A stretch of DNA of 63,571 nt, filler included, from Reclinomonas americana ATCC 50394 (Eukaryota), in the NCBI GenBank assembly GCA_048213135.1. It is 7 parts of 7 records of this genome, joined end to end, with 100 filler letters (N's around TTAATTAATTAA, not from the genome) between each part and the next. Parts side by side here need not be neighbours in the genome. Positions count along the whole stretch, not along the records: positions 1 to 27,380 come from AFZH01019576.1; 6 more parts are not named here. The stretch is one strand, 5' to 3'. A program made the translations under genes and the position numbers. The notes beneath the pieces were generated by a model. The model saw only the letters and a list, made by a program, of their open reading frames with translations, had not been told where the DNA came from and did not search any database. Below are positions 1 through 57,680 of the stretch, in pieces. Every line of letters begins with the position of its first letter. Position 1 is the first letter of the stretch.

Positions 1-3000
1 TTGCCGCGAGAGTTCATCTTTCCAATTGTCGACTTGGCCATGGGAGAACATCATGTTGTATTCCTCGCCGGTCAGTCACGTTCTCCATCCACTCTTTCTC
101 TCTTAGTGTGTGAGAGGCTTAATTCCGAGTGAGAGGCGCAGACTGTAAGCGCAACGTGTTTGGCATTGGGAATGGATCACGCGGGCAGCTTGGTGTCGGA
201 GGCTTCCCACTCGAGGCCTTTCAGGACGCACAAAGGTTCTCTCTTCTCTCCATTACCCTCTCCTTCTCCTTCTCTCTCTGATCGCTCCGTTGCCTCGCAG
301 AGCATTTCTGCTGGAGCGCATCCGCTTTGTCAAGGTGGCCTGCGGAACGCACCACACAGTGTGTCTGAGCGAGCTCGGTGGTGTGTACAGCTGCGGCGAC
401 AATAGCCGTGGTCAGCTTGGTCATGGGAATTTGGAGGATCTAGGAGTGCTGCGTCCGGTGACCGAGCTGCAGGAGCAGGAAGTGCGCATGACGGCGGTGT
501 ACTGTGGCCCCAAGTTCACCGTGGCTATTGATCGTGCGTCGCTGTCTGTGTGTGTGGCCCAAGTGTTGGTGTTGTCGCTGAAGAGGGTGGCTGGCGGCAG
601 AGAGCGGTATGTTGTGGGGCTTTGGCGACACCGAGTACCGGCATGTGTATGTGGAGGAGCAGACGCCGTCGCACTTGTTGTCGCGACCACGGCGACTCGA
701 TACGAGTCGCTACGTCGAGTCTCCGTTCCTGCAGGTGGCCTTCTCCGAGGCCATGGCCGTGGGTCTCACGGCCGACGGCAATGTGTGGGTGTGGGGCACG
801 AATTCCAAGGGAGGTGTGCTGCCACCCACCCGCTTGTCACAGTGCCGTGATCTGCAACTGGTGCAGCTCGTGGCTGGCGAGTCGCACTTTGTTGGATTGA
901 CCAGTTGTGTGTTCTTGTCGCGTCGCCCATGCTTGCCCTTGCACTCATTGACGACCCGCAGAATCCGGCACGGTGGTGGTGTGGGGCGAGAGCCAGCGTG
1001 GTGCTCTCGGGCTCGAATCGGATCCCGCAGTGCGGCATCCGTCGTACACCAAGCGACCGACGCCCACCGAGGTGGATGGCCTCCCTCACCCCGCCGCCAT
1101 GATTGGCGCCGGTGGCTCAGTCACCTGGGCGCTGCTCTGTGCGTCGCCGTGCCTGTTTAGTTGGCATTTCTTACACACACACACTAACTCCTGTACACAG
1201 CCGACGGAACGTTGTGGTGGTGGGGAGCAGCTGGCGACGGCACACCGTTTACGAATTTCGCCCCCGTGTCGGCCCGGCCACCGCTCGAGTTGTCACCGAT
1301 GGCCGACGTACAAGTGATGCGGACATACGGCTCGTGCATTCTGTTTGCTGTTGGTGCTCCGTTTTCATGTTCATGCACCGCTGCGCGTGATCCGTGGACA
1401 GAAATCAATGTTGCGCACTCGTGTGTGCTTGTGCCTCCCCCGCTGTGCGCTGCGTTGCTCACCGCCCTGCGTAGGATGAGAGTGCCGGAGGGCCGGGTGC
1501 GTCACTCGAAGCAACCCTCGAGCGACTCGGCCTGCCGGACCTGCGCAAGGCCGCAGGAGCCCCGCGCTGGCCCAACATGGAAGACGCTGATGATGACAGC
1601 TGGATGCTGCCACAGGTGCGCTCGATTCGCGTGTGTGTGTGTGTGTGTGTGACTCGGCCTCCACGCGCCACTCACGACTGTGTTGCAGGACGGCACGCCT
1701 GCACCAACTCGCCTGCAGCGCGAGGCACCGTCAGAACCCGTGGATACCGACATGGCCATGACGGAAGATGAGGCGGCGCAGTACCGTTCGCCACATGAGG
1801 TGCGTACCGTGCGTTCGCTGCGGCGACGAGATTGACATTTCCATTCACGAGCTGCTGTGGTGTGCGCGTAGTTTGCACGGCAGCAGCCGTACTCGGACGA
1901 CTTTATGGAGACCGATGACCCTTTTGCTCTCAAGCCGTTCCGATTGCACGAAGAGGGAGCGAGTGGCAGTGCTGCTGCCGCTGTTGGTGCAGGAGGACCT
2001 TTTGCCTCGGCCGCTGCACCGTCGCCGGAAATTCAGCAGCAGCTATTGCAATTACAACAGATGCAGATGCTGGCGGCGCAGTTCTTCCCCCGTGATGCTC
2101 ACGGCCAGCTGATGCCACCACCTGGTATGACGGCCGAGCAGTTCGCCTTGTTCTTCCGGCCACCGGTAATACACGATCCCGTCACCGGTGCACCAGTGCC
2201 ATTGTCGGCGGCCTCGATGCATTCACTCGGCGGCGCGGCCGCACAGTATCCGCAGGTACAGTTCTCCCATATTGTGTGCGGCTGTGATGAATGGATGCGT
2301 GACTTGCACTGTCACAGATGCTCGGCACACCCGGCTTGTCACCCATCCCGCCACACTCGGTTGCGTGCACCAACCGAGCGCATGTGTGTGTGTGTGTGTT
2401 TGCGCGCCACACAGTTTGATGCTCATCTCTCTTTCCACGCAGGCGGCATCGGCGGCATCGGCGGCATCTGCTGTCATGGCGTTGCAGGTTTGGCGCACGA
2501 AGAGTGTGGTGAGAAGCAAACATTGTCAGTCGCCTCACCACTCCGTATCGTAGCAATCGATGATGAACTCGGCCGCCAGTGGATCGCCCGCCGCTGCATT
2601 TGGTGCGATGGACTCGCCTGCCAGTCTCGCTGGCAGTATGGCGGCGGGTGCGACGGGCGCACTGGCACCGCTGCCGGGCGCTCCCTCAATGTCACCTGGA
2701 GCGACGTCGGCAGCCGCGAGTGGTGGCAGTGGCGGCGGTGCTCACGTGCCACCGATGGCGGCAGCGTCGTCACGACAGCATGCCATTGGCGGACACTTCA
2801 TGTCGCTGGCCAGCAGTCGAAGTATTCCGACCGAGGCTGCCGGCGCGTCGATGGCCGGCAGTATGCCCGGCTCGCCGCACTCGGTGGCCAGCGGACCCTT
2901 CAAACCCATCGAATTCGATCCCAACTCGTTGCAGAGTGCCGCCGATCAAGCGTGCGTCACAAACTCTCCTTCGCCTCTTCCTCACTTGCCATTCACACTC

Positions 3001-6000
3001 CGGCCGTATTTGCGTCACAGTGCCGCGGAAGTTGAACTTCGTCGACAGATGGAGGATCACGAAGCGCGCAAGCGCAAGCTTGAGGAGGCTGCAGATCTCG
3101 ACCGCACGGAACAGCAGCAACTGGAGGATCGAAAATGGAAGCGTGAGATGGAGGACATGCAACGAGAGAAGGAGCTCGCTCAGCGTAAGGCCGCTGCCGA
3201 AGAGGAGGCCGCGCGCGCCGATCAAGAACGCAATCGCCTGCGCGATGAGGAGGACAGGAAACTGGCTGCTGCGTTGGAGGAGAAGAAGCGCTTATTAGCT
3301 GCCGAAGATGCGCGGCTGGCCGACGAGTTGCGCAAGAAACGAGAGGCCGAAGAGCAGGCGCTGGCCGCTCGCACGGCGCAAATGAGTGCCGCCGAGGAGG
3401 CGCAACTGCGTGCAGAGATGGCGCGGCGGCGAGAGGAGGAAGACAGACTGGAGCGCGAGCGCCGTGAGCAGCTGAAACGGCAAGCCGAAGAAGAGGAGGC
3501 ACGAGTGCTTGCCGAGGCCGCTCGGCGCCGTGAGGAGGAGGATCGTGCAATCCGTGAAGAGGCGGAGCGGAAACGACAAGAGCTGTTGCAGCGTGAGAAG
3601 GCCGAGGAGGAGGAGCGGCGTCGTGTGCGGGCCGAGCAGGATGCGGCAGAGGAGGCGGAGCGTGCGGCGCGGAGACAGGCCGCCGATGGTGAGTGAGCCT
3701 GTGCCTTTTCGTGTCTTCTGTGTAATGTGTTGTTGACACCCGACGATTGTTTCAACTCACACAGAGGCGGAGGCAACACTGGCACGGGAGCGCGAAGAAA
3801 AGAGGCGATCAGAGGATGCGGCTCTGGAGGCCGAGCGCGCTCGCCGCAAGGCTGAACTTGAGGAGAACGAGCAGCGAACGGAGGAAGAGCGCGCAGCAAA
3901 GCGGGCGCTTGACGACAAAATGGAAGCGGAGGAGCGCGAGCGTCGCAAGAAGCAGCTGGAGGAGGAGGAGAAGGCTACACGCGCGAAACGCGAGAAGGAG
4001 CTGGAGGACGCGCGACTGCGTGAAATCGAGGAGCGGAAGCGGCGACAGGAGCAGGACGAGGCCGAACGAAAGGCCCGCGCCGAGTTGGAGGAGCTGGAGA
4101 AGGCGCAGCGGTCGCAAAAGGCCGAGGAAGATCGCCGTTGCGTTCATGCACCGCCTCGCAGGATGCGTTGCCTGCCTTGTTTACCTCTTGTTTTGCAGTG
4201 GAGAGAGAACGGGAGGAGCGTGCAGAGCGCGCGAGGCGTGTGGCGGAGGATGAGGAGCAGCGGCGAAAGTTACGCGAGGCCAAAGAGGAGAAAACTCGTC
4301 GACTGCTGGAGGGTGCACGCGAACCGTCCAAAGCTGTGGCCTCGATGGCACCACCACCTCCCGGATCGCTGTACATGTGGTTCTTTGGCGAAGACTTGTC
4401 GCTGTCACAGGATGCACGTGCACCTGCGTTGTGCGAGCCGAAACAGCTCATGGGTTCCGACTACAATGTGGTGTTGGCGGCGGCTGGTCCGCGGTTCATG
4501 GCGCTGGTGACGGACTTGGGTCACTTGCTGACGTGGGGACGCGGTGACTGCTCGTGTCTCGGACATGCCACCACGAATGACATTTTGGGACCGGCACGTG
4601 TGCAGTTTGATGGTGTTCCACCGCCGTCGCCACGTAGCTTGGAGCGCTCACAAGACGATGTGTTTGGCGACGAGAGGTTTGGAAAGCGCACGGTGGCGCC
4701 GGTGAACACTTCGCGCGTGCCGCATGTGATTGACGTATCGTGTGGATCGTCACACATTGTGTGCGTGGACAGTAACGGTTATGTGTACTCGTGGGGCAAG
4801 GGTGACAATGGTGAGCTTGGACTCGGGATTGGATCGCTGTTGGTGCCGACTCCGCGTCGAGTGACATTTCCCCCTCTGTCGGGTGTGCGACCGCGCATGA
4901 AAATGGTGGCATGCGGCTGGAATCACACTGTGGTGGTGTCAGATCGCAACGAGGTGTGGACATGGGGTCTCGGCAAGTTTGGTTCTCTCGGCAATGGTGC
5001 CACGCGCAATGCCTACGATCCGCTTCGTATCACTCTCTTTGAGGAGGGCGACGAGGGCGTGATTGTCGACGTTCGTTGCGGCCGCAACCACGTTCTTGTA
5101 CTCACCGGTTTGTCGGTGATCGTGGTCGTATATGGTCACAGCTTTCTCTGAAAAAAAGTGTGTACGTTTGGCAGAGGACGGCCGTGTGTTTGCCTGGGGT
5201 CACAATTCGAACGGCCAGATTGGCCTCTCCGTGCCACCAGGTGGCAATACGCCAGGCCCGCCAGACGGCAGTGGCACACCTGCGCCGCCACCATCTGCAG
5301 TGCGTCTCTCTCTTCGCATCCATGCACTTCGTGTTGACTGACCCTTTTGCACCCACTGCAGGCTGCTACCGCCGCCATGCCAGCGCAGTACAATTCACCC
5401 ATCCAGTTGCACTTTTTCCGCGGCAAGCACGTATGCGGCATTGCTGCGGGATCACAACACTCGGTCGCACTCAACGGTGGAGTGGGCATCGCTTCTCGCC
5501 CCTTGTCGTCGCTCTCTACTCACTGTCGAGTGTCTGCGCGCAGTGTATGGTGACGTGTTTGCGTGGGGCTACGGAAACAGCGGACGTCTTGGTCTCGGTG
5601 ACTCCAAGGACCGCAGCCAACCGACCCCTGTCCCCTTCCCGACTGGTGAGCGCGTCATTCGCGTGTCGTCGGGCCCAAGTGCATTCCACACACTGGCCGT
5701 GAGCGAGTCGGGCCGCGTGTACTCGTGGGGCAATGGTGCATTTGGGCAGCTGGGCCAAGGCGACAGTTTCAATGTCAAGATTCCCGCAGTCGTCGATGCG
5801 CTGCCAGCCAACATTCTCGTCAGCACCTTTGCGTGCGGACAGCGAGTGACGTTTGCGGCACAAAGTTGCGTGCCTTGCATTATCAAATCGACTCTCGTCT
5901 GCAGCTTACCGTGCAATGTACTTTGCAGGTCTGCATGGTGGTCAGCCGAATCCCGCCGCCTCCATGGACACGGGTCGCTCCACGCGACGCACATCGGCCT

Positions 6001-7638
6001 TCCTCCTCGACGATTCGTACTCGTATGCCACCGCACGATCCGTCATGTCGCCGCAGTCGGCCACGACACCTCGTGCGGGAGTCATTGAGAAGGAATTCGA
6101 GTACACGATGAGGAAGCTGGAGGTGAGCGCAGATTGTGTACGGCTGTGGTGATTCTGCAGACATGGTTGCGCTGACTTGTCGATGCGGCAGGAAACACGG
6201 CGTGCGCTGGAGGATGCGCTGACAAAGAACACGGTGCTTGAGCAAGAACACAATCAATTGCACTCTCGCGACCTCGACGAACTGTCGCACAAGGAACTGG
6301 AGCGCATCGAGCAGGTGCACTTTGAGGGACTGGTGGAGGTGGCCAAGAAGAAGGTTTGTGTCGCTGTGCTTCTCTCGTCTTCCCAAAGGGTTGATTCTTA
6401 CGGGGCGTGCAGACGGACAAGTACATGGAGCTCATCAAGCGCAAGGAGGAGGGTCTCAAGGCCGAAGTGGAGGACCGCTACGCCAAGCTGTCGGAGGTGC
6501 TGAAGCAGCGAGAGCGCAAGCTGCACGGCGAATTCAACAAGGCGCGCAAGCTCCACGAGGAACTGAACGTTTTGGTCAAGGACCGGAAGCGCGAGTTGCA
6601 GGTACGGCTCGTTGCCCGTGTCGCCTTTTGCGATTCGACGCATCATCGTTCCCTAACTGTATGCACAGCTTCAAATCGAGCGCCTCGACCGCAAGTACGT
6701 GGCCGACGACGCTGTGGCACGGCAGGAAAAGGAGATTGCCGAACTGCGGCGTGCGATGGTGGAGGTGAGGGCGCCATTGCGGTTGTGCTTTGTGACATGT
6801 CTCTCAACCTGTGTCGCAGATGGAGCCGGAGACGCTGCGAATGGAAAAAGAGGTGGTGGAGAAGCGCAAAGAGAGCAAGCGGCGTGAACGCCTGCTAGTG
6901 CGCATGCAGGATATGTACGCGTACTACCACGAGCGCGTCTCCGAGATGGCCGGCATCAATGCACCAGAGACGCCAGTGCCGACGCAGATGAACAAGTTTG
7001 TCGAATGGTTCCCCAAGCATTTCAAGAAATTCCGCACCCAGTTTCGTGTGCAGTAGTCCTGTTTCCCTCAATGACACGTCCCCTCACCGCCTTTGTGCAC
7101 ACACAGCAAAATGTCGCGCAAGGCCTTTGCCGATTTCAAAGAGTCGGCTCTTGGCAAGATCCGCGAGGCCAAGCAGCGCGCTGCTACCGCAGCCGCTGCA
7201 GCAGCCGAATCCGCACGTAGCGAGAGTCTGCTGTCGCCTGTTTCCGCACCGGATGGCATGGCTTCGCCGCCGCCGCACCCCTCCGGTTCACCTTCGCCCG
7301 TTCCCAGCGGAGCATCGCCTGCCTCGAGTGGGCGCGAGGATCGTCGTCGACGTCGACAGGCCGCCATGTCCATGGACGTGGTGGAAGATGCTGACCGCCT
7401 GACACGCTCCACGGCCAGTCCAAGTCCCGGACCCAACGACAGTGCACGTGACATTGCAGCGTCGCCCGTGCCCATTGCTGGCCGACGCAGTTCATTACCG
7501 CGTTCGTCCTCGGTGGCCGACTCGGCCGGATCACCATCGTCGCCGACCGGAGCGCGGCGTGGTGAGCTGAGCCCGGTGCCGGCAGGATCTAGTCGTCGAG
7601 CACTAATATCACCCAAATCCCCACCGCGGAAAAAGTGA
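1..7638 (+). CDS. Large RCC1-repeat protein (5' partial, multi-exon): N-terminal RCC1 propeller, low-complexity linker, long E/R/K-rich helix, second RCC1 propeller, coiled coil, S/P-rich tail
   Basis: Spliced exons give RCC1 repeats (VACGTHHTVCLSELGGVYSCGDNSRGQLGHG; VSCGSSHIVCVDSNGYVYSWGKGDNGELGLG; VACGWNHTVVVSDRNEVWTWGLGKFGSLGNG; FHTLAVSESGRVYSWGNGAFGQLGQG). GT-AG introns keep the frame. TGA at 7636-7638. Confidence 0.85.
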
Positions 7639-7665: not shown

Positions 7666-10600
7666 TTAAGTCATGTATTCATACACGACGGGGCCCGGGC
7701 CAGGCCTTCGCTGCAGGTACTCTTTGGTGATGAGCACTGCAATTTGCTCGACCACCTTGGTCGCCGCGGGCAAGAATTGTGATCGAAGCTGTGCAACCGG
7801 TCAAACCCTGCTCAACGCTGTTCAGCATCAACTCTCTGCACGCAACAGTTTCAATCACGGCGAGCACGAGTTCCTTGTGTTCCAACTGGCGTCGTGCTTT
7901 CATCACACGGACAATGGCGGCCTGGATCTGTGCGAGTAACAGCTATCGGTGAGTGCCTCTCACTAGTTTACCATGCATCGGTCGTAAACGCAACAATATA
8001 CTTGCGCCGCTCCTCAGTTCGCTTGTGTACCTCGGCGTTGGCCGAGTCGAAGGCAATCTTGCGCTTGATGGACAGCGTCTGCTTGTCCTTTTTCTTGGAG
8101 GTGTATGCCGAGTTGACAGCGAGGCGATCTTGCAAGCGATTCGCCTGCACCGGTGCCAGAAAACGGTCAGCATGCAGAGAGTGCGCAGCGACACCCGCGG
8201 CAACAAACCCCAGGTGCAGTGTCGACCACCACCAACAACTTGGCTCTGCACAGGAACTTGACGAACATGTTAAAGAGGGTGGCGTCCAACAGGCCACTCT
8301 CCCGAAACACATCGTCCGCACTGTGAACAGGAGGAGAAGGGTCATGAAAAGAGGTGAACTGACACACCAGTTTCTGATATGGGGAGACTCACAGCATCGG
8401 TACGTCCTCTTCGACGCGCTCAAACGGCAGCAGCACGCTCAACAGCTGCGGTGTCATGACAAAGACATATGTCTTGCGCATGTCCAGACGCGGCATGAAG
8501 GCGACTTCCACGGTGCCGCGAGACGACAAGAAGTGCAGCATGCGGCCATTGTGATTTGCCGCGTACATTCGGTCAAACTCATTTCTGCTGTTCTCCATCG
8601 GCACCGAGCACAGGACGCTGCCATGCGCGACAGATTAGCACAAAACGCAATCAGTGGCGACACATAAGTGGGAAGTGCGTACCGTGAGGTTTCCACCTCG
8701 CGTGGCCACAGCGAACGCTCAATGACAATGACGGTGAGATCGACCAGTGCACGACTCTGCAACACAACACGTCAGTGACGCAGGAGACGCAAGTCGCACG
8801 TCACCGCCCAGTACCTTGTCTTTCCGCATGAGTTTCTTCAGCTCGTCTCCTTCTGCCTTGCCGCGAACAACGTCGTGGAACAATTTGCGGATCTTGTCCG
8901 CGAAGCTGGGCCCAAAGGTCATCTGTTGTGCTCATGGGGTCAGCACCTCGTCACACACACACAAAAGGAGCATACGAAAACTGCGTACCGTCAGCTGGTT
9001 CACCACCATCGCCTCGTTGTCCATATTTGCGCCACGTTCCACGATGCGATCGGCCAGTTGTCGGCGATAAAACTCTTCAAACACATCGCGATCGTCGAGG
9101 TGCTCCAGAAACTGGAACGCGGCTGTCACACGTGGAACCACGATCTGTCGCACGCACGGGGATCAGAGACGAGGAAATAGGGAACAACCCCGGAGCAGCC
9201 ACGACCCAACCTCGTACGCTGGATCCTTCTCCCGCGTGCTCAGCTGCAAGTGCATGTAATGCGCCAGGTACTGCGAGGCGGCTGCGCTGAAGCGGCTCAA
9301 AATCTCCTTCAGCATCTCAAGTTCCAACTCTTCGTACTCTGGCCGGCGGAGCGCATCCTTGCACAGTACACGCTGATTCTCGTGGTATTCAAGCAATGCC
9401 TGTCGGCGATATCAGCGGTATGAGAAACTGGAATACCGTGTCCTTCGGGTCTCCGCTTGGTTACACGCACCTCCACAAAGGCTGTTGCTTGTGCTTCGCC
9501 TTCAGCGGCCTCCACGCGCGCCACCACTGCCGGACCCGCCACCTCTTCCAGGAACTGCTGGTACATCTGTTGGGCCATTGCAGCGCCGTTGGGAATACTG
9601 CGGTCCGGTGTGGGACAATGAAAAAATGAGCAGACGAGACTCGAACAACAGGCACGGCACGACATGCACGCACGTCTCCAGCAGACGGACGAGTTCACCG
9701 AGAGGACCGCACTGGCGAGTGTGCATGAGGAAGAAGATGCCCGTGTCCATCTGCGTGCGACGGTGAGTCGCAGTATCATTGGCACAGCACACGACGCACT
9801 GCGGCACCGCAACTGTCTTGAGTGTATCCAAGTGTTGCACCAGCAGCTCATCAATCAGGATGCGGAGCACTTTCGGTACGGTGTCTCTTTGGAAGCTGCG
9901 CGTGGCAAACGTGCTCTCGCTTCTCTGCAGCTTCGACACCCATTCCACGTACCGCACGGCATCGCAGCTGCCCAGCATCTCCTGCGACATGCGTCTGTAC
10001 GAATGCCGTGCATCCTCCAGCATTGGCGTCTGCAGCAGCAGCGAGCACGGAAACGGTGGTGTCAACACGCTGACCAGAACGCCACACAGCACTCGTCACG
10101 GACCTCGAACAGATCCGTGTAAAAACGCACTCCGACCTCGCGCAACATCAACAGCACCTGCTGAAACGAGGTTTGATCGGCGATCTCGCCATTGCGCACC
10201 GCCAGTACTCGAGCCAGCAGCTCCTGCGACAAGGTGCGAGCCAGCTCATCGCCCAACAGCAGCGTCTCAAAGTGATGCAACCCTGCGCATACATAAGCTC
10301 CCTGGCGATAGATCGATCTGCGACAGAGTCAGATAAGAATGCATGCGCACCGAGAGCATAGACGGGCCGACAATCGCGTTGCGTGCGAACCCACTGGTCA
10401 TCCTGCACACCAACCCATCCACATGTTCAGCGCCTGACAACAACCTCAATGCAACCCGGCTGTCTGTCGACCACTTTACCAAGTACAACAATCCGCCTCG
10501 CATGCGCGACAACGAGTCGCGATAGCGCTTCCACATCACTGCCAGTGGCTGCAAATAGCCCGCGCGCTCTGTGGCCAACGACCTCACCACGGCCTCCACT

Positions 10601-10884
10601 TGTTCCTTCAGGAATTGACTCACGGCCTCATACAGCCGCTCGGCTTGTCGATCCACGCACAGCTGTGGTAAAGAGAGAGAGAGGGTGAGTGAGTGACTGA
10701 GTGGAGAGACACACAAGGCAGAGAACAGCGAGAGAGAGAGGAGAGGAGAGAGAGATACCATGTACGATGCACGATACAACTCCTCAAAGAGAACGTCGCA
10801 GCCTTGTTGCTGGAAGATGCGCTCCCACACGGTATGCAGCTTTGCAAAGAGCACCTCTGGCCTCTCTCGGCCACGACCTGCCAT
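7666..10884 (-). CDS. Cullin (divergent, cullin-3-like), multi-exon
   Basis: N-terminal LFEELYRASYM-LCVDRQAERLYEAV, cullin-homology segment FLEHLDDRDVFEEFYRRQLADRIV, neddylation motif IQAAIVRVMKARRQL, C-terminal LITKEYLQR...YEYMT*. Confidence 0.9.
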
Positions 10885-11034
10885 CGCGCTCTCAGGAAAG
10901 ACAACAAACGAAACACGGCCAGAGACACGACAAAATGACGACACGACGTTTCCCTTTTACTCTCTTACTCTCTATTCGTATGCATGCAAGTGTGTTGTGT
11001 GTATATATAGGCCGCGACAGAGACGAGCTCCGCC

Positions 11035-11655
11035 TCACGAGGTCGACTTGAGGAAGTTTCGTGAGCGAATAACGTCGCGATTGTCGAGCTTGAAGAAGCG
11101 CTTCTTCTGCTCCAGCGTCATTTGCTGGAACGAGATCGCCCGCAGCTCCTCCAGAGAGAGCGTCTGCGCCTCCACCAGCGCGCTCAGCCACTCGGGGTAC
11201 TCGTTGGTCGCCTTCACCGTTGGCACTGTGCGCGTCGAGGCAAAGTCGAGGCCTTTCACTGTGCAAAGAAGGAGAGTGAGAGTGGAGGGGGGAGGGAGAG
11301 GGAGAGAAGGGCAAAGGGGGAAGTGAGAGAGTGAGCAAAGAGGGAGACGAGGGAAGCGCACATTCATGCGTACTCTCACTCTCACGCAACTTGGTGCACC
11401 GACAGTCAACGTCTGTGCGCCTCCACTGCCTGCCGCCGCCTGCGAGCCTCCCGCCTCTCCTCCCGCTGCAGCCGCTGCTGCAGGCTTCTTTGCACCTGCG
11501 CCCTTGGGTGCGCCCTTGGCCGCGGGTGCTGCGGCCTTTGCAGCAGGCGCACCAGCAGCAGCAGCAGCAGGCGCCTTCCCGCCAGCTGCAGGCGCCGCGG
11601 CCTTCTCTGCGCGAGCGAGCACAGCAAGAACAGCGCGGCGCACGTGAGAGCTCAT
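11035..11655 (-). CDS. MRPL54: Mitochondrial ribosomal protein mL54 (L37/L54 family), 2 exons
   Basis: Presequence-like MSSHVRRAVLAVLAR, an A/K/G-rich linker, then KGLDFASTRTVPTVKATNEYPEWL and KRFFKLDNRDVIRSRNFLK, matching the EYPEWL and I..NF family motifs. Confidence 0.75.
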   Translation of the reverse strand: MSSHVRRAVLAVLARAEKAAAPAAGGKAPAAAAAGAPAAKAAAPAAKGAPKGAGAKKPAAAAAAGGEAGGSQAAAGSGGAQTLTVGAPSCVRVRVRMNVRFPRLPLCSLSHFPLCPSLPLPPPSTLTLLLCTVKGLDFASTRTVPTVKATNEYPEWLSALVEAQTLSLEELRAISFQQMTLEQKKRFFKLDNRDVIRSRNFLKSTS

Positions 11656-11705
11656 GAGTGCGTGTGAGTGTGTGTACAATGTGGCTCGCACTCTCTGTCA
11701 CGCAA

Positions 11706-14700: not shown

Positions 14701-15535
14701 CTGCTGGTGACGCTGGCGCGGTGCGTTTCTTGCTCGAGCGATGGCATTCGCTCACTGGCGAAGTACGTGCTCGCACGCTGGCCGTGCGACCAAACAGCGA
14801 GCAGGTGACCCCGCTGCACTTTGCGTGTGCCTCGGGGCTGCCGCAACTGCTCGACAAACTGGTGGAGGAGACCGACACCAGTGACGATGGAGGTACACGC
14901 GCTCCCGTTCCTGCTCTCGTAGTGTCGTCCATTGCGCTGACACATCGCAGTGTCGTTGGATATTGGTGTGGCCGACCATCGCGGCTGCACTCCGCTGCAT
15001 GTGGCCTGCATCACCGGGCATGTGGATTGCGCTCGCCGGTGCGTGCAGTACGGCACTGCCGTCGACACACAGGACAAGCACGGACGCACACCGCTCTGCT
15101 ATGCAGCCGACGCCGGGCACGAGTTGTGTGTGTACTACCTGGTGAAGGGTTTGTTTACTACAACTTGTTGTTGTTGTTGTCTGTTTGTCCTTGTCGACGG
15201 AACTCACATGGTGTCGCGCAGAGGCACGAGCCAATGTGCAGCTGGCCGACATGGATGGCATGTCGCCGCTGCACTTTGCGTGTGGTGGTCTGCACAAACG
15301 GTGTGCACGAGTGCTGCTCGATTTCGGTGCCGATCCGGAGACAGTGGATGCAGAAGGCCTGACGCCGCTGGCGCATGTACGGAGAGGTGGCGATGGTGAT
15401 GACGAAGAAGAAGAAGAGGAGGAGGAAGTAGAACAAAGGGAGGATGCAGGTGCAGAGAGGCATGCGGCCGAGTCGTTTGTGGCTGCCTATCAACAGTGGC
15501 TGGCCAAGAGAAGAGCAGCGTCATCAAGGGAATGA
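11706..15535 (+). CDS. Multi-ankyrin-repeat protein, multi-exon
   Basis: Many ankyrin repeats after splicing: ERTLLHVAALHGH, DGLSALHVAAKQG, DGDTPLHVACKK, GETALHMAT, GFTPLHW, GDTPLHKACLFGH, GCTPLHVACITGH, GRTPLCYAADAGH, GMSPLHFACGG. TGA at 15533-15535. Confidence 0.85.
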
Positions 15536-15644: not shown

Positions 15645-18600
15645 CTAAATGAGCCGCATCCAGCCGACGGGCGACATGAAAAACACGGCAGCCGTCTTCG
15701 GCGGCACGTGCAGCGGCGTCTCGGAGCCCAACATGAGATGCACCGTGGTGTCCTCGTCGTCGTTGCGGCAAAACATGAGCTGACCCTCGCGGGCACGGGC
15801 GCCCGTGAAACCCACAAACACCGACACCGTGCCAGTGGCGCTCGGCTGGCTGTCGCTGCGCACAACGACAATGCCCACATCGGTGACGGACACAGTGCCG
15901 GCGTCGGCATCCACCACCACCGGTGTCAGGCTCAGTTGACCGACCGACAGCGAGTTCACCAACAGCGCATCCTTCGAGGCATCTATCGTGCCACTCGACG
16001 AATGCAACCGCGGGTGAGTGTCGGCCGAGCCGCCTGCCATCTCCAAGCGCGAGCCACCGGCGACATCGCTGCCGACCTGCATGGTGGTCGAAGCCACCAA
16101 ATCTCCGCCAACGTGCACGCCACCGGGGCACGAAATGTCGCCCGACGCCATGCGACACTGCCCATCGGTGACGACGGAGGCCTCCACCGTCGCGGCCTTC
16201 ACCGTGCCGCGCGTTGTGAGGTCGCTGTTCTGCAGACTCACGCGGCCACTGGACGAGGCCAGCACCGGATCCTCTCCCGACGTCTCCACCGACAGCGACG
16301 CACGGTCGCCGTTGATGCGCAAATGCTGCAGGAACACAACGTGAGTCGGAGACACAATATGTCGTCGACGGCGAACGGCACGCCACCACTCACCGAGCCA
16401 GCCAGTTCGCCACTGGTGTGCACACCACCACTGCATCCACTGATGGTGCTTCCGTGAATGGTGCACGCCGCGCTGCCGTCCTTGGTGGTGGTGCTGAACG
16501 AGGCGGCCACCACCGACGAACCCGAGCGGATCGCCGTGTCCGTAAAGTCGACCACGCGCGTCGACGAGCGCACAGTCGGGTTCTCGCCGGAGCCGTCGAG
16601 AATGATCGACGAAAGACTCGAGGCCGCAATCTCCTGCGCCTCCATCACGCCCTGCGTGATAATGTCGCCCGTGCATCCGTCAATTGCGCCGTGCGCAATG
16701 GAGCAACGACCGTCGGTCAGCGTGGTCGCCTCGACGCCCACCGCCGTCAGATTGCGCGACAGCACCAAATGCGCGTCGGCCTCGATCGTGCCCGAGCTGG
16801 AGCGGAAAGACGGATGCTCGCCATGGGCTTCCACATTCAGCTCCGCCGACAGACCGCGGATCTGGTGCAGGCAAGTCAGCACGACGCGAAAAGAAAAAAG
16901 AGAAACAGCACTCGCAACCAACCAAGAGACTGAGTGCTTGAGCGGGGCCGTCGACCACCAGGTTGTTGCGCACGCTCTCCACCGAGAAGCCGCTGTTGTC
17001 GTGGACAGAGTTGACCACCAGACCTCCGTTGCTGGGGCCACTCGACAGGTTGCTGGCCAGCACGCACCCGATCAGCACACCGCCCTCCATGCGGCACACG
17101 CCGTCGGTGATGGCCGGTGCCGAGATTTCTGTGGAGGTGCATGAGCGTGAGTTTTCGTGTTTGTGACGCACAATCAAGAGGTGCTGCGCTTGCATACCTC
17201 CGTCGGCGCGAATGTTCTTCTCCGCCGCAATGCTGCCGGAGGAGATCACATTGCCGGCGACACGAACGTCGGACCCGACCCGGATGCCAGCACGGATGTT
17301 GGCCTCGGAGGCCTCAATGGCGCCTATCGACTGCACCGACTGCACCGTCAGCGAGCCGACGACGGACAGGTTGCCTTCGTTCGACACACCCACTCGGCCT
17401 GCACAACAGATATGAGAAAGGCTGCCGATCAAGAACTACTACAACAATAACCAGAATGAATGACGACGCACCATTGCCAAACATGGCCGTACCGTCGGAG
17501 GCAATGTAGTTGCCAGCCTTGGGTCCACCGACACGCATCTCGCTGGCCGCCATCATCGACGGCGAGGTGACACACGAGCCCTCAATCTTGCTCGAGCCGA
17601 CCTGCATGCTCAGCTGATCCGACACAAACACATTGTCGACAATCGAGCCGCCGTTCACGCCGCTGCCAAAGCGCAGCTTCTCCACGTGCAGCGTGCCGAT
17701 GCGAGCTTCGCTGGCAAACACGCCATCGGTGGCTGTCACCGACAGCATGCCGTCGGCAAACGAGGCCGACGGCGCCGTCACCGCACCGTTGAGATCGAGC
17801 CCGAGGAGGCCACTCAGGCGACCATTCTGCAACAATGCCTGTCCGTCGGTGATGGACTGACCGCGCACCTCACCAGACACATTCATCGGGCTGGTGATGC
17901 GCAGCGGCTCGCCGGTCGCCGATTGAATGCCACCAGTGGACACCGACAGCTGCTGGAGGATAGTTCGGCCCGCACCCACCATGTCGCCGTTGACAATCAT
18001 GGTGGTGACCTCGGCTGCTGGGCACGTCATGGTGCCGACTTCGTCGACGGCAAACTGATTGCCGGAGCCGAACATGCCAATGGGGGCGCGCACTGAGCGC
18101 CGCGCAGCAATCTCCTCGGCAACCACACTGCCGCTCTGCATCACCGTGATGCCGTCGGTGATCAGCGGGCTGGTCATCGACTCCGACGCGTTAATAACCG
18201 GTGCCGTGACGGCGCTCTCCAGCTGCAAGTCGTTGGTGACGAGCTTGTCAAAGTTGCCGAAATTGGCGTACACACCGCCATCGTCGCGCAGCTGCACGGT
18301 GCCGTTGGCGAACGAACCGCGCGCGGCAGTCAGCGTCTCCGTGGCGCGCACTTCCGTCACATCCAGCTTGCCGTGGGCCAGACGCGCACTGCCGTCTGTC
18401 AGCTCCGCAGCGTGCACTGTGCCCTCGGTGACGAGTGTGTCGCCGCCGAGCGAAATCGAGGCCGTCAGCGAGCGCAGCGAACCGTCGCCAATCACCACTG
18501 AGCGGAGCGACGCAACACCCGACGTGGTAACGTGCACCGCATTGACGCTGCCGACGGTGGCCTGCGCCGCTGTCAAGCCACTGGTGTCGACGCTGACCGT

Positions 18601-21168
18601 GCCGTTTGCAAACGTCGCCGCCGCGGCATCGAGGTGGTCGCTCACTCGCACCGACGGCGTCTCGAGCGACTCGGTCAGCAGCGCGGCACGGCACTGCATG
18701 CCGCCAATGCTGTCCATGGTGCACCCGTCCGGGCCGCCGACAATGACTGAGGCGGCGGTCAGCACGGTGCTGGCGCGCAGTGTCGGCGACGAGACCGAGT
18801 TGGGCGAAATTGTGGTGCTGTCGTTGGTCGGCGCCGTCACGGACGACGAACCGGTGGCATCGGTTGTTGAAAACGCATCGTCAGCGGCGGCAGCGGCAGC
18901 GGCAGCGATCGATGCATTGCTGTCCACCACTCGCAGCATGCTGAACGACGCCATGCCCGAACTGCGCAGCTCGTGGGCCGTCACAATACCAAACTGGGCA
19001 TCTTCGCACACCACGTTGCCGTTGTCCAGCACGGCGCATCGACCGTCGGCAAACGACGCCGAGCCCTTAACAGAGAGTGTGGACGAGACGTCCAGCTGCG
19101 GTGTCGAGATGCGGCCGCTGGCAATGTTCGTGCCCTGACCGTCGGTCAGCGACGAAATCGTTGCCGACGACGCCAACACGCTGTGATCCAAACAAGGATG
19201 AGAAAATCGTGGGAACAGGGATGTTTGGTTGCGCACATACACACCCGTTGAACAAGGCAGAGAGGCAGTCTTCGCCGCCGAAACCAGTGTCACACACGCA
19301 CTGCGGCTGCCCGGTCACCGAGTTGGCGATGCAGTGGCGATTGGTGCCACAGTCCACCATGCAGACGCTGCAGCGGCCATCACTACCCTTGCTCCATCCA
19401 GTGGGACAGCGGAGCTGATGGGAAAAGTGAGCGACGGTGGATTCTGAGAAGGAGAGAGCAACGACGGAAGACCACTAACCAGGTTGCACGATGGGCCCTC
19501 CCAATTGGCGTCGCACAAGCAGTTGCCGGCGGCGTCGCAGTTGCCATGGTCCGAGCACGTCTCACTCCGGCTGCATCCACACTGCGGGCCGCCGAATTCC
19601 GCGGCGCAGGTGCACGAGCCATTCAAGCACTTGTTGGGAGCTCCACCGCTGTTGTGAGGAGAGAAGAGAGATGAGAAGTTTGGCGTGGATGCTCCCTACT
19701 AGCAGCAGCAGTCACTCACCACTGAGCCTCCGAAATGCACGCCACACACTTGTTCGGCGACGCTGGATCGCACATGGTTCCCGTCGGGCTGCACGCAGCA
19801 AGAGAGAGAGATATCAGCAACTATTTTTCTTCTCACGCGCGACGGGAGGTGGCCTTACCAGTTCGCTTGCACGCACTCGCAGTTGGTGCCGCCAAAGCCC
19901 GGCAGGCACACGCAGCGGTTGCTCATCGGCTCGCACGGCGCACCATTCGCGCACTGGCAGTCGACCGTGGTGCACGTGCTTCCCTTCCAGCCAGTGAAAC
20001 AGATGCACTGGCCATTCGAGGCGCACATGCCGTTGCTGTTGCACGTCTCCAGATCGGAGCACTCGCAGAAGCGACCATTGAAGCCTGCGAGAGTGATGGT
20101 GAGACGAACACGTCCACAGCTGCAGAACTGAGCACGAGACGACAATGTACCAGGATTGCAGACGCACACATTGCTGACACAGGAGCCCGACGAGGAGCCA
20201 CCGCTGTGACAGCAGGATAAGTACGCAAACAAAAAAAGAGACCACAGAGAGACCACGCACCAGGCCACATCGTTGGTGCAGTCCACCGACGCAGTAGGCG
20301 ACGATTCACCGACTGTTCCACTCGACGATGACGACGACGATGAGGACGACGATGAGCTTCCGCCAGCAGCAGAAGCTGGCGGTGCCGGCGGCACACCATT
20401 CAACCATCGCGAGCAGTCCACGCCAGTCCACCCTGCATCGCACGAGCAGGCGCCCGACGCGTCGCACGAACCGTGATCGTTGCACGACTCGAGTCGTGAG
20501 CACTCGCAGTTCACACCTCCACGATCTGCAATCCGCATGAGCAACACACCGCACACACACTCTCATTGCGTCCACACTCACCAGCCGCGCAAATGCACTT
20601 GCCACCGACGCACATGCCTCCATCCGATCCACCACTGTCACCAAATAAGCAGATTGTATCACTGAAGGCGATCGCAAGGAGCATAGACGCAACCACTGCG
20701 CGCTGGTGGTGCAGACAGGCGGTGTGTCGCCACTCCACTTGGCACACGAGAGGCCCGCCCAACCCGCGTCGCACACGCACGATCCATCGGCCGCGCACGA
20801 TCCGTGTCCATTGCACGACTCGTCCCGAGTGCACTCACAAAACTCTCCACCACTCCCTGCACCGCCACAGCATGAGTACATGCAAGAGAGAGAGAGAGAG
20901 AGAGTGGAGGTGTGTGTGCGCGTCTCTCTCACCTGGGAAACACGCGCAGGCGCCATTGATGCACTTGCCGGATCCATTGCACTGTTGACTGTCAACACAA
21001 GCCGCAGCGGCCTCCTGCACCGCAGCTGCCACTAACACCAATGCTACTACCACGAGCAGCAGCAGCAGTGTGCTGCCAAAGCCTCTTGTCACTGAAAAGA
21101 AGAAGTTGTCCCGAGTTTGGTAAGTCTCTCTGTCAATGGTGGAGAAAAGAATGAAGATGCACTCAACT
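15645..21168 (-). CDS. Secreted protein: signal peptide, about a dozen tenascin-type EGF repeats, about 1100 aa of beta-rich fibre-like repeats, and a C-terminal globular domain
   Basis: Signal MTRGFGSTLLLLLVVVALVLVAAAVQEAAAA. EGF repeats such as CNGHGSCAADGSCVCDAGWAGLSC and CSDHGNCDAAGNCLCDANWEGPSC are spliced in frame to [LIV]TDG/SFA[DN]G repeats. Ends ...VFFMSPVGWMRLI TAG. The ATG appears to be split by intron 21092-21167. Confidence 0.8.
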
Positions 21169-21345
21169 CTTTCCGCTTGTCGCTCGCTGTCTCTGTCTCT
21201 CTTGCTGGTATGCGCGTGTGTGTGTGTGTTGAGTTGTCTTGTATCCGAGACGCAAGAGATGAGCGCGTCTGGGCTCCGCGGTGTTGAAAAACAAAATCGT
21301 AATACCGGCTTCGAACATCAGACACAGCAAATGTGTCCCGAGTAA

Positions 21346-24300
21346 TCAATCGGAACCCTCGGCTGCCACCTGGGCAAAGCTCAGCGGATGTACCAGTGGT
21401 GGCCGCAGGTGGGCGACCAGATGCGCGCCGAGTTGCACCAGAACCTCCACAGTGCCGGGGGCAAGCTGCGAAACCAGGCACTTGAGTGGAACATGTGCAA
21501 GACAAAAGCCGTCTGTGTGCGCGTCCTTGCACGTACCTCGGGTGCGGTGCGACGCAGCTCGTCGCAGGCCGCCAGCATGGCATCCTGGAGCCGGAACGCC
21601 GGCAGCACCCCGGTTTCCAGCAGTGCCGTCCAGAAATCGGCAAAACCGACGGTCAGTGGCGGCGACAAGTGCCGCATGGTGCGCTCGCCCAGCAGTGCAC
21701 GCCACACAAGGTGCATGCGAGTGCGCAGCAGCTGTTGCGCTGCTCCAAAGAGTATCGACAGCGATTTGCTGTCCATGCTTTTGCCCTCCTGCCGCTCGCG
21801 CACCAAAAACGACGGAAACACGCACGTCCACACCGCCGTCACCACCTGATGCGCGATCTCATCCAGGTCGGCCATGGGCAAGTGAAGGTCGTGCATCATC
21901 GATGCAATGGCCGCAAACTTGTCGACGAGCACCTCCGCCGACTGGCGGCGACGCAGAGCGGCCACTTGCACGGCCAATTCATGTCGCACGCCGAGACGTG
22001 AGGTGGCCGAGGGCCACTCCAATGTCACCTCCTTGACCGGTGGCACAGCTGGCAGAGGGTCTTCGACAGCCGCAGCCAGCTCCTCGGCATCCGCGGCACG
22101 CAGCTTGGCCGCAGTTGTGAGCGACCGACGGAACTGTGTACAGTTAGCACTGCTGCAGAGCACAAGAGGTCACCCACAACATCTCCTCACCTTCGTCCAA
22201 TGGTGCGAGAGTGACGAGCGAAGCAGCAACTGAATGTCGGCTTCCAGACTTCCCGTGATGTACTGTTCACACGACTGTGTCGTCAACTTCACGGCCAGGT
22301 CACGAGCGGCGGCATTGTAATCTTGCACACATGTGAGACTAAAGAAAACATCACTCGAGGACAACACTGCGTCGCACACCTGGAGGCACCAAGTTCTGCA
22401 TCAACAGTGCAATCTGCTGCCGGCACTGTGCCACTGCGCACTCCGTGACCGGGCCCAGCGCCAATGCAGTGGCATGTCGCACCATGTCGCCCATCATGTC
22501 ACCGGCACCTGCCGACTGCGCGACGTCACACACCAAGGATCAGAATCATGGAGGCTCCTCGCTTGTCGCACCCACACACACACACACACACACTCACAGT
22601 CGCTGCAACACAATCGGATGCAGCCGCAGCCGGCTGCACGAGGAACAAGCGACATGTGGCCTGCACGTGCGACATTTGAGCGCGGTGACTCGGGAAGAAA
22701 CAACCTACGCGACTGCGGCGTGCCACTGACCTCGACCGCGGGCGGCAGCAGCTGTGCGCAGCTGTGCCGTCGGGCATTGTCTGCCACTCGACGCACAAGA
22801 AAATTGGCCAGCTGCTTCAGTTGTGGATTGGCGTCGAAAAATGCGTCGTGCAGCTGCGGGCCAGCAGCGTCGTCGGCACTGCTCGCCCCCACGACCACAG
22901 GCTGCCACAACGAAAAAATGAAAATGAGAGGCACGAACCAAGCAAAGGGCACAATTCTTTTGGTGTGTGCATACCTTGACCAGCACGGGAACGACCTTGC
23001 GGATGCTTGGCGAACCCATCGTGCCCGGCGACTGGCACTTGACGCCACCAAGCCGCGCACTGTCGTACGCCGAACTGAACACCTGCCGGACAGCATCACA
23101 GTCGTCCGACATGGTCACTAGCGTGTCGCCTCCGTCGAGGAGGCCGAGCGATGCAGCTGCATCGGCATCCTGCATGCGTGGTGTGTGTGTGTGTGTGAGT
23201 GTGTGCATGGTGAGAGCCGACAACGCCACCACCTCGCACTGAGCTCCTCACGAACCGTTCGCCACACAGCCATGGACTCCACGGCAGCTGCGCTTGCTTC
23301 ACTGGCAACTGTGGCCAGCAGATCCGGCACCAAGCTCCACTCCAGAGCCTCTTCCACCACCGCACGCAGACCGCTGCTCAAGATTCGTGCGTCAAGTGGC
23401 GCATCCTCGCGCTGCACGAGTTCGGCGCACTGCTTGCGAATGTGCAGCAGCAGGATCCACGCTTGTCGAATCGGTTCGAGTCTGTGGTGCGCAGTCAGTC
23501 GCAAGAGAGAGACGTAGAGGGAAAGAGAGGAGACGATGGGAAGGAGAGAGGGGAAACGAAGAAAGGCGAAGAGAAGGAGAGAGGCGAAGAGAAGGAGAGA
23601 GAGGAGACGAAGAGAAGGAAAGAGAGAGGAGACTAAGAGATGAGAGAGAGGGAGACGAAGATAAGGAGAGAGGGAGACGAAGAGAGGAGAGAAAGACGAA
23701 GAGAGGGAGAGAGGAAGACGAAGAATGTTGACAGCGGGAGTGACAGTAGCGAGAGAGAAAGCACATCAACGAGAAAAGGAGAAAGCGAGAGGATGAATGT
23801 TGACAATGGGAGCGACAGAAGCGAGAGAGAGAAAGCACATTAAAGACAAGGGAGAAAGCGAGACGAAGAATGTTGACAGCGGGAGTGACAGAAGCGAGAG
23901 AGAAAGCACATCAACGAGAAAAAGAGAAAGCACATCAACGAAAAAAGGAGAAAGCGAGGGGATGAATGTTGACAATGGGAGAGACGGAGCGAGAGAGAGA
24001 GAGAGAGTGAAAGTACACGAAGAGAAAGAGAGAAAGCGAGACGAAGCATCTTGACAACGAGAACTGGCGAAACCGAGAAAGGGGGAGAGTGCATGTACCA
24101 AAGAACGAGAGTGCAGAAAGCATGAGGACATGGATGCGCAACTCCAAGGCCGTAGCCGATCGAATCGACGAGCGGAAGAGTGGCATCATCCAGGTGACAT
24201 GCGCCGGCAGTTGATGCAGTGCGGCGGCTCGACGGAGAATCGAGACCAGAGCCAATTTGTCGGCAACGTGTCTGTCGCACACAGCATTCAGTTACGTCAA

Positions 24301-56660: not shown

Positions 56661-57630
56661 ATGGGGTGCAAGAGCTCATCAGCCAAAGTCGCTGAGCCAC
56701 GGTTCGCCTCCGTGAGCCAAACACCATCGGTGAATGATCAAGTTGCGTGCCCACACACTCGCAAAAGAGTGCCCGTTACACACTCTCTCTCGCATGATCA
56801 TTCACTCTTGCGCACACGCAGAGTTCTCAAGCACGCAAGACAAGTGCAGCTGCAGAGAGCCTCAACTCACTCATCGCGCGACTCGACAGCGCAGTTGATG
56901 GGTCGCATGGTGCGTCACATGCACACAGTGTCTCTCTCTCTCTTTCTCTCTGTCTTTGTGCCTTCCTCATGTGTGCGCATGCAGGTGTGAGCGACTCAGA
57001 GCTGAAGCGTGCCAAGGACCTCATCCGCGCCTTTTGTGGGACTCCGCGCTACATTGCCTTGCGCGACACCTCCTTCTCCAAGGCCGACACGAACAAGTCG
57101 GGGGCGGTCGATGCCCGCGAGATTCACGTGTTCCTCGTGGACTTGTATCAGAGTTGAGTGAGTTGTAGGTGTGTCTGTTGAGGAGCAGTGTCTTATGCAG
57201 CGAGAGCAGGGCATGTTGCGGATGTTCCCGAGTGGCGACGTCACCATTTTCACCCTCCGACGCGCGCGGATGCAGACAAGCTGGTGAAGGGTGAGCGAGC
57301 TGAAGAGCAAGAGTGGGCTACTGTGCATCAGTGAGCTGAGCTGTGACTGTGCAGCACTCGACAAGGACCACAATGGGTCGATTGATATCACCGAATACGA
57401 CGGTGAAGCGGCTGCTTTTCGTGCCTGTGCATGTGCTTGTCTCACTGTTTTGTTACTGGCGTGCAGTGCTGTTCCAACACTCGCTGCTGCACACGCTCTG
57501 TCTGCAGCTGAAGACAGGCAAGTGCACCGTGGACGATCTGGAACGAGCACTGGCTCCGGCGCCTGATGCTGCTGCCGTCGCTGCCGCTGCATCTGTACCC
57601 ACCGAAGCAGCTGAAGCAGCTTCTGATTGA
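56661..57630 (+). CDS. N-acylated EF-hand calcium-binding protein
   Basis: MGCKSS (myristoylation/palmitoylation-like); EF loops DTNKSGAVDARE and DKDHNGSIDITE. Confidence 0.8.
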
Positions 57631-57680
57631 AGAGACTCTCTCCAAGGCCATATCATTTCTTCTGCTTTTTACACGACGAG

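Follow-up and report, generated by a model that had tools for sequence, protein, structure and literature searches.

A candidate trimeric fibre protein with an EGF stalk in the nuclear genome of Reclinomonas americana

The standard means by which phages bind their receptors is a fibre built as an intertwined triple beta-helix; the long and short tail fibres of T4 and the K1F endosialidase are examples of trimeric fibres or spikes in which a triple-beta-helix shaft carries a C-terminal receptor-binding knob. To our knowledge, very few such fibres have been described from eukaryotes (the sarcoglycans, MYRF, and TLP-12 of alveolates). Here, we report on a locus on the minus strand of DNA from Reclinomonas americana ATCC 50394 (NCBI GenBank assembly GCA_048213135.1), which is predicted to encode an extracellular protein of ~1519 amino acids (aa) with N-terminal epidermal growth factor (EGF) modules, a long repeat region, and a C-terminal head domain (henceforth called the fibre gene and the fibre protein). 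The whole stretch of DNA that was analysed, i.e., 63,571 nucleotides (nt) consisting of seven joined parts, is referred to as the window, and all positions are positions of the window; the fibre gene lies in the part taken from AFZH01019576.1 (positions 1–27,380). We consider it reasonably probable that the repeats of this protein wind as a parallel homotrimeric triple beta-helix with a distal knob, and that the product acts as a surface-bound or secreted spike or adhesin. Its sequence would most likely represent a new family among the rare triple-beta-helix fibres of eukaryotes.

The fibre protein resembles phage tail fibres in architecture, and its nearest counterparts in kind are TLP-12, the sarcoglycans, and MYRF, yet it fails the defining sequence features of each of them. 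With phage and viral fibres it has in common a predicted parallel intertwined homotrimer, small-residue beta repeats, a C-terminal globular domain, and N-terminal attachment, but its gene is nuclear and contains introns, it carries a secretory leader and EGF modules, and it lacks both a Peptidase_S74 chaperone and a sequence match to such fibres. TLP-12 of alveolates (Amoebophrya and others) is likewise a protist extracellular three-chain parallel fibre, with a high content of Ser, Gly, and Thr and probable glycosylation; cryo-electron microscopy revealed a triangular triple beta-helix with six-residue sides of alternating chains (A/b1-B/b2-C/b1), built from ~1,263 strict GSxxSx7 dodecapeptides in ~20,000 residues and provided with a C-terminal ICA domain (10.1101/2025.09.30.679562). 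The fibre protein differs in having degenerate units of ~80 aa, an EGF region, and another head, and no ICA domain was found. Dodecapeptides of the TLP-12 type were absent from its 1087-aa repeat region, in which G[ST]xx[ST] occurs four times, never 12 residues apart, and Gly shows no autocorrelation at lag 12. The beta-, gamma-, and delta-sarcoglycans are described as co-folding into a heterotrimeric triple beta-helix with disulfide-bonded C-terminal loops; here too, an extracellular triple beta-helix of eukaryotes occurs together with a disulfide-rich module (PMC12871233). They are, in contrast to the protein proposed here, heterotrimers of ~290-aa type II membrane proteins with a Cys-rich C-terminus; the N-terminal segment of the fibre protein could be a signal anchor as well, but its Cys-rich part is N-terminal and its C-terminal head contains one Cys.

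MYRF, which is reported to carry a phage tailspike domain, is a case in which a trimerising beta-helix of phage type is part of a eukaryotic protein (PMC3742443, PMC8326128). Its short stalk and self-cleaving ICA domain are, however, part of a transcription factor of the endoplasmic reticulum (ER) membrane, and no ICA domain was detected in the fibre protein. The EGF modules of the fibre protein match the Pfam family EGF_Teneurin best, and the teneurins, which reportedly arose from a bacterial YD-repeat toxin, also fuse EGF repeats to a large prokaryote-derived beta structure and go back to a unicellular ancestor (PMC3278476). A YD/RHS shell and NHL, FN3, or fibrinogen domains were not detected by Pfam on any exon (E-values up to 1–10); with neither YD/RHS nor NHL present, and with no sign of the teneurin transmembrane helix or large intracellular domain, identity with a teneurin was rejected. 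Stramenopile mastigoneme proteins (PnMas, Ocm/SIG type) are similar in architecture only (signal peptide, EGF-like domains, no transmembrane segment). For these extracellular flagellar hair components, 3–4 EGF-like domains and a size of ~64 kDa are given, and no fibre-repeat region is described (PMC12223298). A ciliary gene, of the B9 type, is also present in the window. No protist triple beta-helix or domesticated tail fibre corresponding to the fibre protein was described in the literature searched, which did not cover the CryoSeek supplements.

The features of the fibre gene and its product are as follows, from the 5' to the 3' end of the gene.

21306–21318, minus strand: putative exon 1, ATG, 4 codons (MFEA), donor GTATTA; its phase fits the acceptor at 21092
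20933–21091, minus strand: exon 2, hydrophobic leader (LLLLLVVVALVLVAAAV), a signal peptide or signal anchor; the first EGF module begins here
20856–20739, 20634–20582, 20525–20261, and 20203–20151, minus strand: exons 3–6, EGF part
20084–19859, 19788–19720, 19648–19480, and 19414–19245, minus strand: exons 7–10, EGF part
19245–20856, minus strand: Cys-rich EGF modules of tenascin/teneurin type, exons 3–10 (Pfam)
20323–20356, minus strand: run of 13 Ser within the EGF part, a 12-nt tandem repeat (Tandem Repeats Finder, period 12, 2.8 copies)
17472–19180, minus strand: exon 11 (query P0001), first 569 aa of the fibre region, with type-A units
18940–19179, minus strand: type-A unit 1 (alignment A2; BLAST E-value of 2.8e-5 to unit 3)
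18775–18906, minus strand: run of 8 Ala followed by a Ser/Thr-rich stretch (from the translation)
18205–18447, minus strand: type-A unit 2 (alignment A2)
17650–17907, minus strand: type-A unit 3 (alignment A2), overlapping the only stretch with a sub-threshold Sarcoglycan_1 match
17198–17398, minus strand: exon 12, 66 aa with a six-residue rhythm
16923–17128, minus strand: exon 13, TDG motif and C-x9-C pair; the donor GTTGGT at 16922 is weak and uncertain
16394–16861, minus strand: exon 14, type-B units 1 and 2 (motif 2, TDG, Cys pair)
15645–16325, minus strand: exon 15, type-B units 3 and 4, then the head domain and the stop
15915–16325, minus strand: type-B units 3 and 4, first 137 aa of exon 15, predicted intertwined triple-stranded beta stretch (from contacts)
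15648–15914, minus strand: C-terminal all-beta head of ~89 aa (AREGQLMF...VGWMRLI), with patchy contacts
15645–15647, minus strand: stop codon TAG

Joining of the 15 exons yields a coding sequence of 4560 nt (1519 codons), the sole stop of which is the terminal TAG. All 14 introns are bounded by GT and AG; 13 of them measure 56–104 nt and the first one 214 nt. The locus is, as modelled in silico, a real gene, namely one intron-bearing eukaryotic nuclear gene. The model as a whole was derived from sequence alone, with the start codon and the donor at 16922 being inferred. The GC content at the three codon positions amounts to 0.58, 0.57, and 0.78, compared to 0.52 in the introns and ~0.59–0.63 in the surrounding eukaryotic DNA. 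Exon 11 is open in a single frame (GC at third codon positions, GC3, of 0.79), and its five other frames carry 4–24 stops. The predicted junction between the EGF part and the fibre part is one 64-nt intron (19244–19181). Retention of an intron shifts the frame in 11 of 14 cases; the remaining introns 5, 6, and 12 (20204–20260, 20085–20150, and 17129–17197, minus strand) have lengths that are multiples of three and no in-frame stop, and their retention would yield longer in-frame isoforms. Unlike the fibre, the peptide from a retained intron 12 would have a high content of His, Arg, and Lys. Introns 2 and 1 contain (CT)n and (CA)n microsatellites (20880–20925 and 21215–21235, minus strand).

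The ATG at 21318 is the only one between the stop of the upstream gene (21381) and exon 2. A same-strand open reading frame (ORF) at 21384–22169 ends 62 nt before this ATG, which implies that two genes lie very close together or that the ORF represents further exons of the fibre gene. The latter, with which the product would become a type II membrane protein, is unlikely: splicing of the ORF (phase-1 donors) onto exon 2 needs an intron of at least 390 nt, compared to 56–104 nt elsewhere. The ORF itself is a 262-aa frame with a coding-like GC3 of 0.75 and the look of helical repeats, to which no Pfam family was assigned. On the opposite strand of exon 11, a 359-aa frame is open at 18059–19138 (plus strand) with a GC of 0.80 at the third position; it was rejected as a gene candidate, as such a frame arises as a by-product of GC3-rich sense codons, and several similar antisense ORFs overlap the fibre locus.

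An earlier note on this DNA, made from the sequence, had described a signal peptide and tenascin-type EGF repeats spliced in frame to about 1100 aa of small-residue repeats, and a final domain of approximately 90 aa. The single 1519-aa frame agrees with the in-frame junction, the repeat region measures 1087 aa, all nine strings listed for motif 1 and all five for motif 2 are present, and the end domain corresponds to the predicted all-beta head. Its upper coordinate (21168), in contrast, is not a start, the putative ATG lying at 21318. Kyte-Doolittle windows above 1.8 are confined to residues 4–38 of the 1519 aa, so that exon 2 does supply a hydrophobic leader, to which a cleaved signal peptide, as named in that note, and a signal anchor both fit; no further hydrophobic segment follows residue 38 anywhere in the protein, in keeping with the absence of an obvious membrane anchor that had been remarked on.

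The N-terminal 432 aa contain 64 Cys (14.8%), and six-Cys EGF modules of the tenascin/teneurin type are present by Pfam gathering cut-off, which likewise bears out the tenascin-type repeats of the earlier note. EGF_Teneurin scored 36.9, 28.7, and 27.8 bits on three exon ORFs (cut-off 24.3) and 13.7 bits, i.e., below the cut-off, on a fourth; EGF_2 reached 23.1 and 25.3 bits (cut-off 22.1), and EGF_laminin was also above its cut-off. The run of 13 Ser is probably an O-glycosylated linker.

The post-EGF part (1087 codons without stops or frameshifts) is rich in small residues (S 13.6%, G 11.6%, A 11.0%, V 10.9%, T 8.7%) and internally repetitive. TDG occurs 8 times (0.63 expected) and C-x8/9-C pairs 6 times (0.37 expected), and neither count was reached by any of 20,000 shuffles. 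Internal units match one another by BLAST with E-values down to 6e-8. Three type-A units of ~80 aa (alignment A2; TDG ... F-A-D/N-G) occupy the N-terminal half and four type-B units of ~80 aa (alignment A1; motif 2, TDG, Cys pair) the C-terminal half; the profile hidden Markov model of A1 scored 62–113 bits on its own four rows, with 112.8 and 97.9 bits on the units of exon 14. The units also carry an 'h-R-S-S-S-G' motif and C-x9-C pairs, the fibre part contains nine N-x-S/T sequons, and the run of 8 Ala with its Ser/Thr-rich stretch is likely a place where a flexible or glycosylated segment interrupts the fibre. Exon 12 displays a six-residue rhythm (IRVGSD/VRVAGN/VISSGS/IAAEKN/IRADGE), and across the whole fibre part hydrophobic autocorrelation is positive at lags 5–6 (z of 2.6 and 1.7) and negative at lags 3–4 (z of −4.5 and −3.9).

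For the prediction of a homotrimer, which the earlier note had proposed as a check, three copies of the last 226 aa (query P0002) were submitted to ESMFold2 in three runs along with three controls. The interface score ipSAE was 0.90 in each of the three runs and 0.00 in the best of the three controls, with a predicted local distance difference test score (pLDDT) of 89–90, 830–839 contacts, and a contact agreement between runs of at least 97%. The ipSAE is the model's own confidence and not a measurement, and it was calibrated on two copies, whereas three were used here. In this calibration, the mark was reached by 21 of 30 one-chain pairs and 0 of 23 single chains of microbes, and by 17 of 29 one-chain pairs (among them 1 of the 7 without an older solved relative) and 0 of 30 single chains of eukaryotes. 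The interchain interface is nearly continuous from residue 4 to residue 135 of P0002 and becomes patchy further on (149–154, 173–187, and 212–226). All 25 of the lowest-error pairs listed connect residue i of copy 2 to residues i+3 to i+8 of copy 3 (mean 5.6). Such a stagger fits parallel strands of ~6 residues from three chains that alternate in one sheet, a geometry also seen in the cryo-electron microscopy structure of TLP-12, and the shaft fold inferred from these offsets is a triple beta-helix; the sparse contacts of the head would fit a globular trimeric knob. The hydrophobic recurrence at lags 5–6 is consistent with this arrangement, albeit weak. An intertwined homotrimer that ends in a globular domain, i.e., an architecture of the phage/virus type, is thus predicted for the last 226 aa. 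The earlier note had gone further in proposing a viral-type fibre of viral descent; the predicted trimer agrees with the type for these 226 aa, and a viral origin is not supported, no alignment-based search having returned a match.

Monomer models were computed for comparison with AlphaFold2 without alignment; they had pLDDT values of 36.6 (226 aa) and 38.2 (101-aa head) and were unusable, which is compatible with an obligate oligomer and equally with the missing alignment. Foldseek with the former model against the PDB gave no row at E ≤ 0.001 (0 of 95, best E-value 2.3). Its rows to sarcoglycan (8yt8_G, 9c3c_g), the phage 7-7-1 fibre, T4 gp34, and the Bd2133 fibre (E-values 3.3–5.9, probability 0.01–0.02) were rejected, as they stem from the unusable model.

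In the assembly that we propose, the hydrophobic leader would bring the chain into the ER and would then be cleaved off or remain as a short type II anchor. The EGF modules (~400 aa) would fold with disulfides and form, together with the Ser-rich linker, the proximal flexible part. Three chains would meet in parallel at the ~90-aa C-terminal head, which would trimerise and set the register, and the repeats would coil about one shared axis as a triple beta-helix whose sides measure ~six residues; in this helix, the TDG and FA(D/N)G motifs would make turns and the C-x9-C pairs stapled excursions. Sequons, the Ser13 linker, and the Ala8/Ser-Thr stretch suggest glycosylation and hinges. If the trimer extends over most of the 1087 aa, it would be a rigid rod of tens of nm, up to ~65 nm when scaled by the 14 nm per 216 residues per chain of TLP-12. 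The product would consist of the rod, a distal knob, and three proximal EGF arms, and would attach through its EGF part after secretion or, alternatively, through an N-terminal anchor that stays uncleaved, presenting the knob away from the cell as a surface or secreted spike or adhesin in adhesion or recognition.

A secreted protist fibre mounted on an EGF stalk and tipped with a new knob would extend the short eukaryotic list, as it lacks the chaperone domain used by the other eukaryotic homotrimers. It would also provide a compact, expressible model (226 aa, an in silico trimer) of chaperone-free fibre assembly and a handle on the makeup of protist surface hairs or spikes.

Relatives of the fibre protein were searched for by sequence in a series of collections. 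Phmmer with P0001 against 1,835,955,588 representatives returned no match at E ≤ 0.001. P0002 against a collection of 5.8 billion proteins (lengths 124–396, word-seeded) gave 1378 candidates, none at E ≤ 0.1, and the A1 profile (lengths 143–2000, word-seeded) gave no relative among 8000 scored candidates. With 15 queries against PHROGs, no fibre family was obtained (best E-value 0.031, to an unrelated virion protein), and four queries against NCBIfam gave no match. Pfam returned no phage fibre or Peptidase_S74/ICA family at E-values up to 10, nothing at E-values up to 10 on the last 91, 135, and 226 aa, and no beta-helix family; the head domain matched no family of Pfam, PHROGs, or NCBIfam. 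Tblastn against 50,697 phage records yielded no match at E-values up to 1. Three scans of IMG/VR (P0002, the head, and query P0003) gave 5, 34, and 10 pattern matches, one of which passed local tblastn, and no locus; 80 pattern matches of P0001 on JGI metagenome contigs included none that was confirmed. Among PDB sequences, P0001 had one chance match (E-value 0.63), P0002 and A1 none, and A2 three unrelated ones (E-values 0.08–2), so that none of these four queries identified a solved relative from which the trimer prediction could have been drawn. Tblastn inside the window matched the fibre gene only to itself. That no relative was found among 1.84 billion representatives suggests that whole structural families remain hidden in under-sampled eukaryotes. 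The result is tempered by the CPSF73 homologue of the same window (39393–41461, minus strand), for which a single relative was found among 8000 scored in the 5.8-billion collection (42% identity over 34% of the query); the lineage seems to be poorly sampled and absent from protein collections.

Several points weigh against the homotrimeric fibre. As no homologue exists in any database searched, evidence from conservation or covariation is lacking. The trimer prediction covers 226 of the 1087 fibre residues and comes from one language-model predictor run without alignment, with three copies beyond the two-copy calibration; the pass rate of 1 in 7 without an older solved relative means that the behaviour of the method on such targets is poorly known. 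The term triple beta-helix is founded on contact offsets and not on compared coordinates, and the 5–6-residue periodicity is weak (the z of 2.6 and 1.7 given above). Type-A and type-B units have only the TDG motif in common (hhalign, 17 columns, probability 28.6), and the N-terminal half may therefore fold differently. Lastly, the gene, its start, and all introns are sequence predictions, and introns 5, 6, and 12 stay open when retained.

The alternative that survives best, which we nevertheless hold to be rather unlikely, is that the repeats form a monomeric beta-solenoid or beta-helix adhesin of the filamentous-haemagglutinin, bactofilin, or Pmp type, and that the trimer is an artefact of the language model. 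ESM Atlas clusters near P0001 with Bactofilin (24–28% of members), Fil_haemagg (32%), and PelX_Ig (0.83–0.85) point in this direction, as does the hexad-like rhythm of exon 12, which resembles single-chain triangular beta-helices; in addition, structure models often place chains side by side, and the calibration counts apply to two copies. An ipSAE of 0.90 compared to 0.00 in 3 of 3 controls, and a mark reached by none of the 23 and 30 single chains, speak against an artefact. The continuous interface of ~130 residues with its constant register shift argues against side-by-side packing of folded monomers. Pfam, moreover, produced no beta-helix match, Atlas values below 0.9 are leads only, and the recognition of P0001 is low (1146).

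Capture of the fibre part from a tail fibre or spike of a phage or large DNA virus, and its grafting onto an EGF gene, would be compatible with the fold, but we consider this origin unlikely. In its favour, a parallel intertwined homotrimer with a C-terminal knob, as predicted here, is a hallmark of phage and viral fibres, and MYRF and the teneurins are precedents for capture by eukaryotes. By ESM Atlas features, the top cluster of P0002 is viral (0.95; 172 of 256 features in common; recognition 2341, with the mark at 2300); its 88 members are recorded as 100% viruses, with Uroviricota given for the 7 of known phylum. In two further clusters at 0.90, Phage_phiTE_241_C is found on 39% and Phage_depo_C on 12% of members. 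P0001 gave weaker, mixed leads, viral ones included (0.88; recognition 1146, below the mark of 2300). This nearness of the C-terminus to phage proteins is a lead unconfirmed by alignment and may mirror a common fold class, from which alone the feature similarity may stem. Every alignment-based search (PHROGs, Pfam, phage tblastn, IMG/VR, phmmer) was devoid of a viral relative, and no alignment reproduced the resemblance to known fibres that the earlier note had proposed for both motifs and for the end domain. The fibre part has four spliceosomal introns and a GC3 of 0.80, with 0.72 in the EGF part and 0.62–0.79 in three neighbour genes, and for synonymous codon fractions the correlation between the fibre and EGF parts is r = 0.88; these host-like properties argue against contamination or a recent insertion, and any viral transfer would be old. 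We likewise give little credence to the more far-reaching idea that the fibre protein represents a founding class of eukaryotic spikes, in which an ICA-independent homotrimeric triple beta-helix with its own knob, obtained by ancient viral or phage capture and mounted on an EGF stalk, would seize prey or substrate or serve as a virus decoy.

A repeat region derived from a distant relative of the sarcoglycan extracellular domain and used as a homotrimer appears very unlikely. Sarcoglycan_1 (PF04790) was the only Pfam family at E < 0.1 on P0001 or the exon-based repeat sub-windows (E-values 0.021–0.074, profile positions 47–153 of 259), and the leader could act as a type II anchor, as in sarcoglycans. 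The scores (12.8–14.5 bits), however, are far below the gathering cut-off of 32.5 bits; the three matches come from one overlapping stretch and count as a single observation, and with ~20 queries scanned, one match at an E-value of ~0.02–0.05 is not unexpected. The A1 and A2 profiles did not match PDB sarcoglycan chains at E-values up to 10, the Cys-rich part lies at the N-terminus of the fibre protein but at the C-terminus of sarcoglycans, and the Foldseek rows to sarcoglycan (E-values 3.3–5.9, probability 0.01) are no evidence, having been obtained from the unusable model. The remaining alternative, a wrong gene model in which the EGF and repeat parts are separate genes or the locus is decaying or unexpressed, could appeal to the single 64-nt intron at the junction of a predicted model, the 13-nt start exon with its ATG 62 nt past an upstream same-strand stop, and the lack of a database protein matching the locus, but is highly improbable in view of 14 canonical GT-AG introns of uniform size that restore a 4560-nt frame without internal stop, a fibre ORF that is preceded by neither an ATG nor a separate leader (its first Met lies well inside exon 11) yet carries the paired Cys and N-glycosylation sequons typical of secretory proteins, the agreement in GC3 and codon use between the EGF part, the fibre part, and neighbour genes, and 1087 intact fibre codons.

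The window is ordinary nuclear DNA. Besides a PH and a zf-C2HC domain as well as an SDR, it holds the following features.

149–6085, plus strand: large RCC1-repeat gene, many repeats over several exon ORFs
9505–10956, minus strand: cullin
11038–11697, minus strand: mitochondrial ribosomal protein L37
12530–15535, plus strand: multi-exon ankyrin-repeat gene, converging on the 3' end of the fibre gene
39393–41461, minus strand: CPSF73
55393–56199, plus strand: ORF with a TMC channel-like domain (E-value 4.2e-6)
57445–58332, minus strand: ciliary basal-body B9-C2 gene (E-value 7.9e-26)

No Rfam families or tRNAs were detected in the window. The ankyrin-repeat gene ends in a poly-Glu tract, for which a 21-nt tandem repeat at 15404–15444 codes. 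Given the B9 gene, the organism probably bears cilia or flagella.

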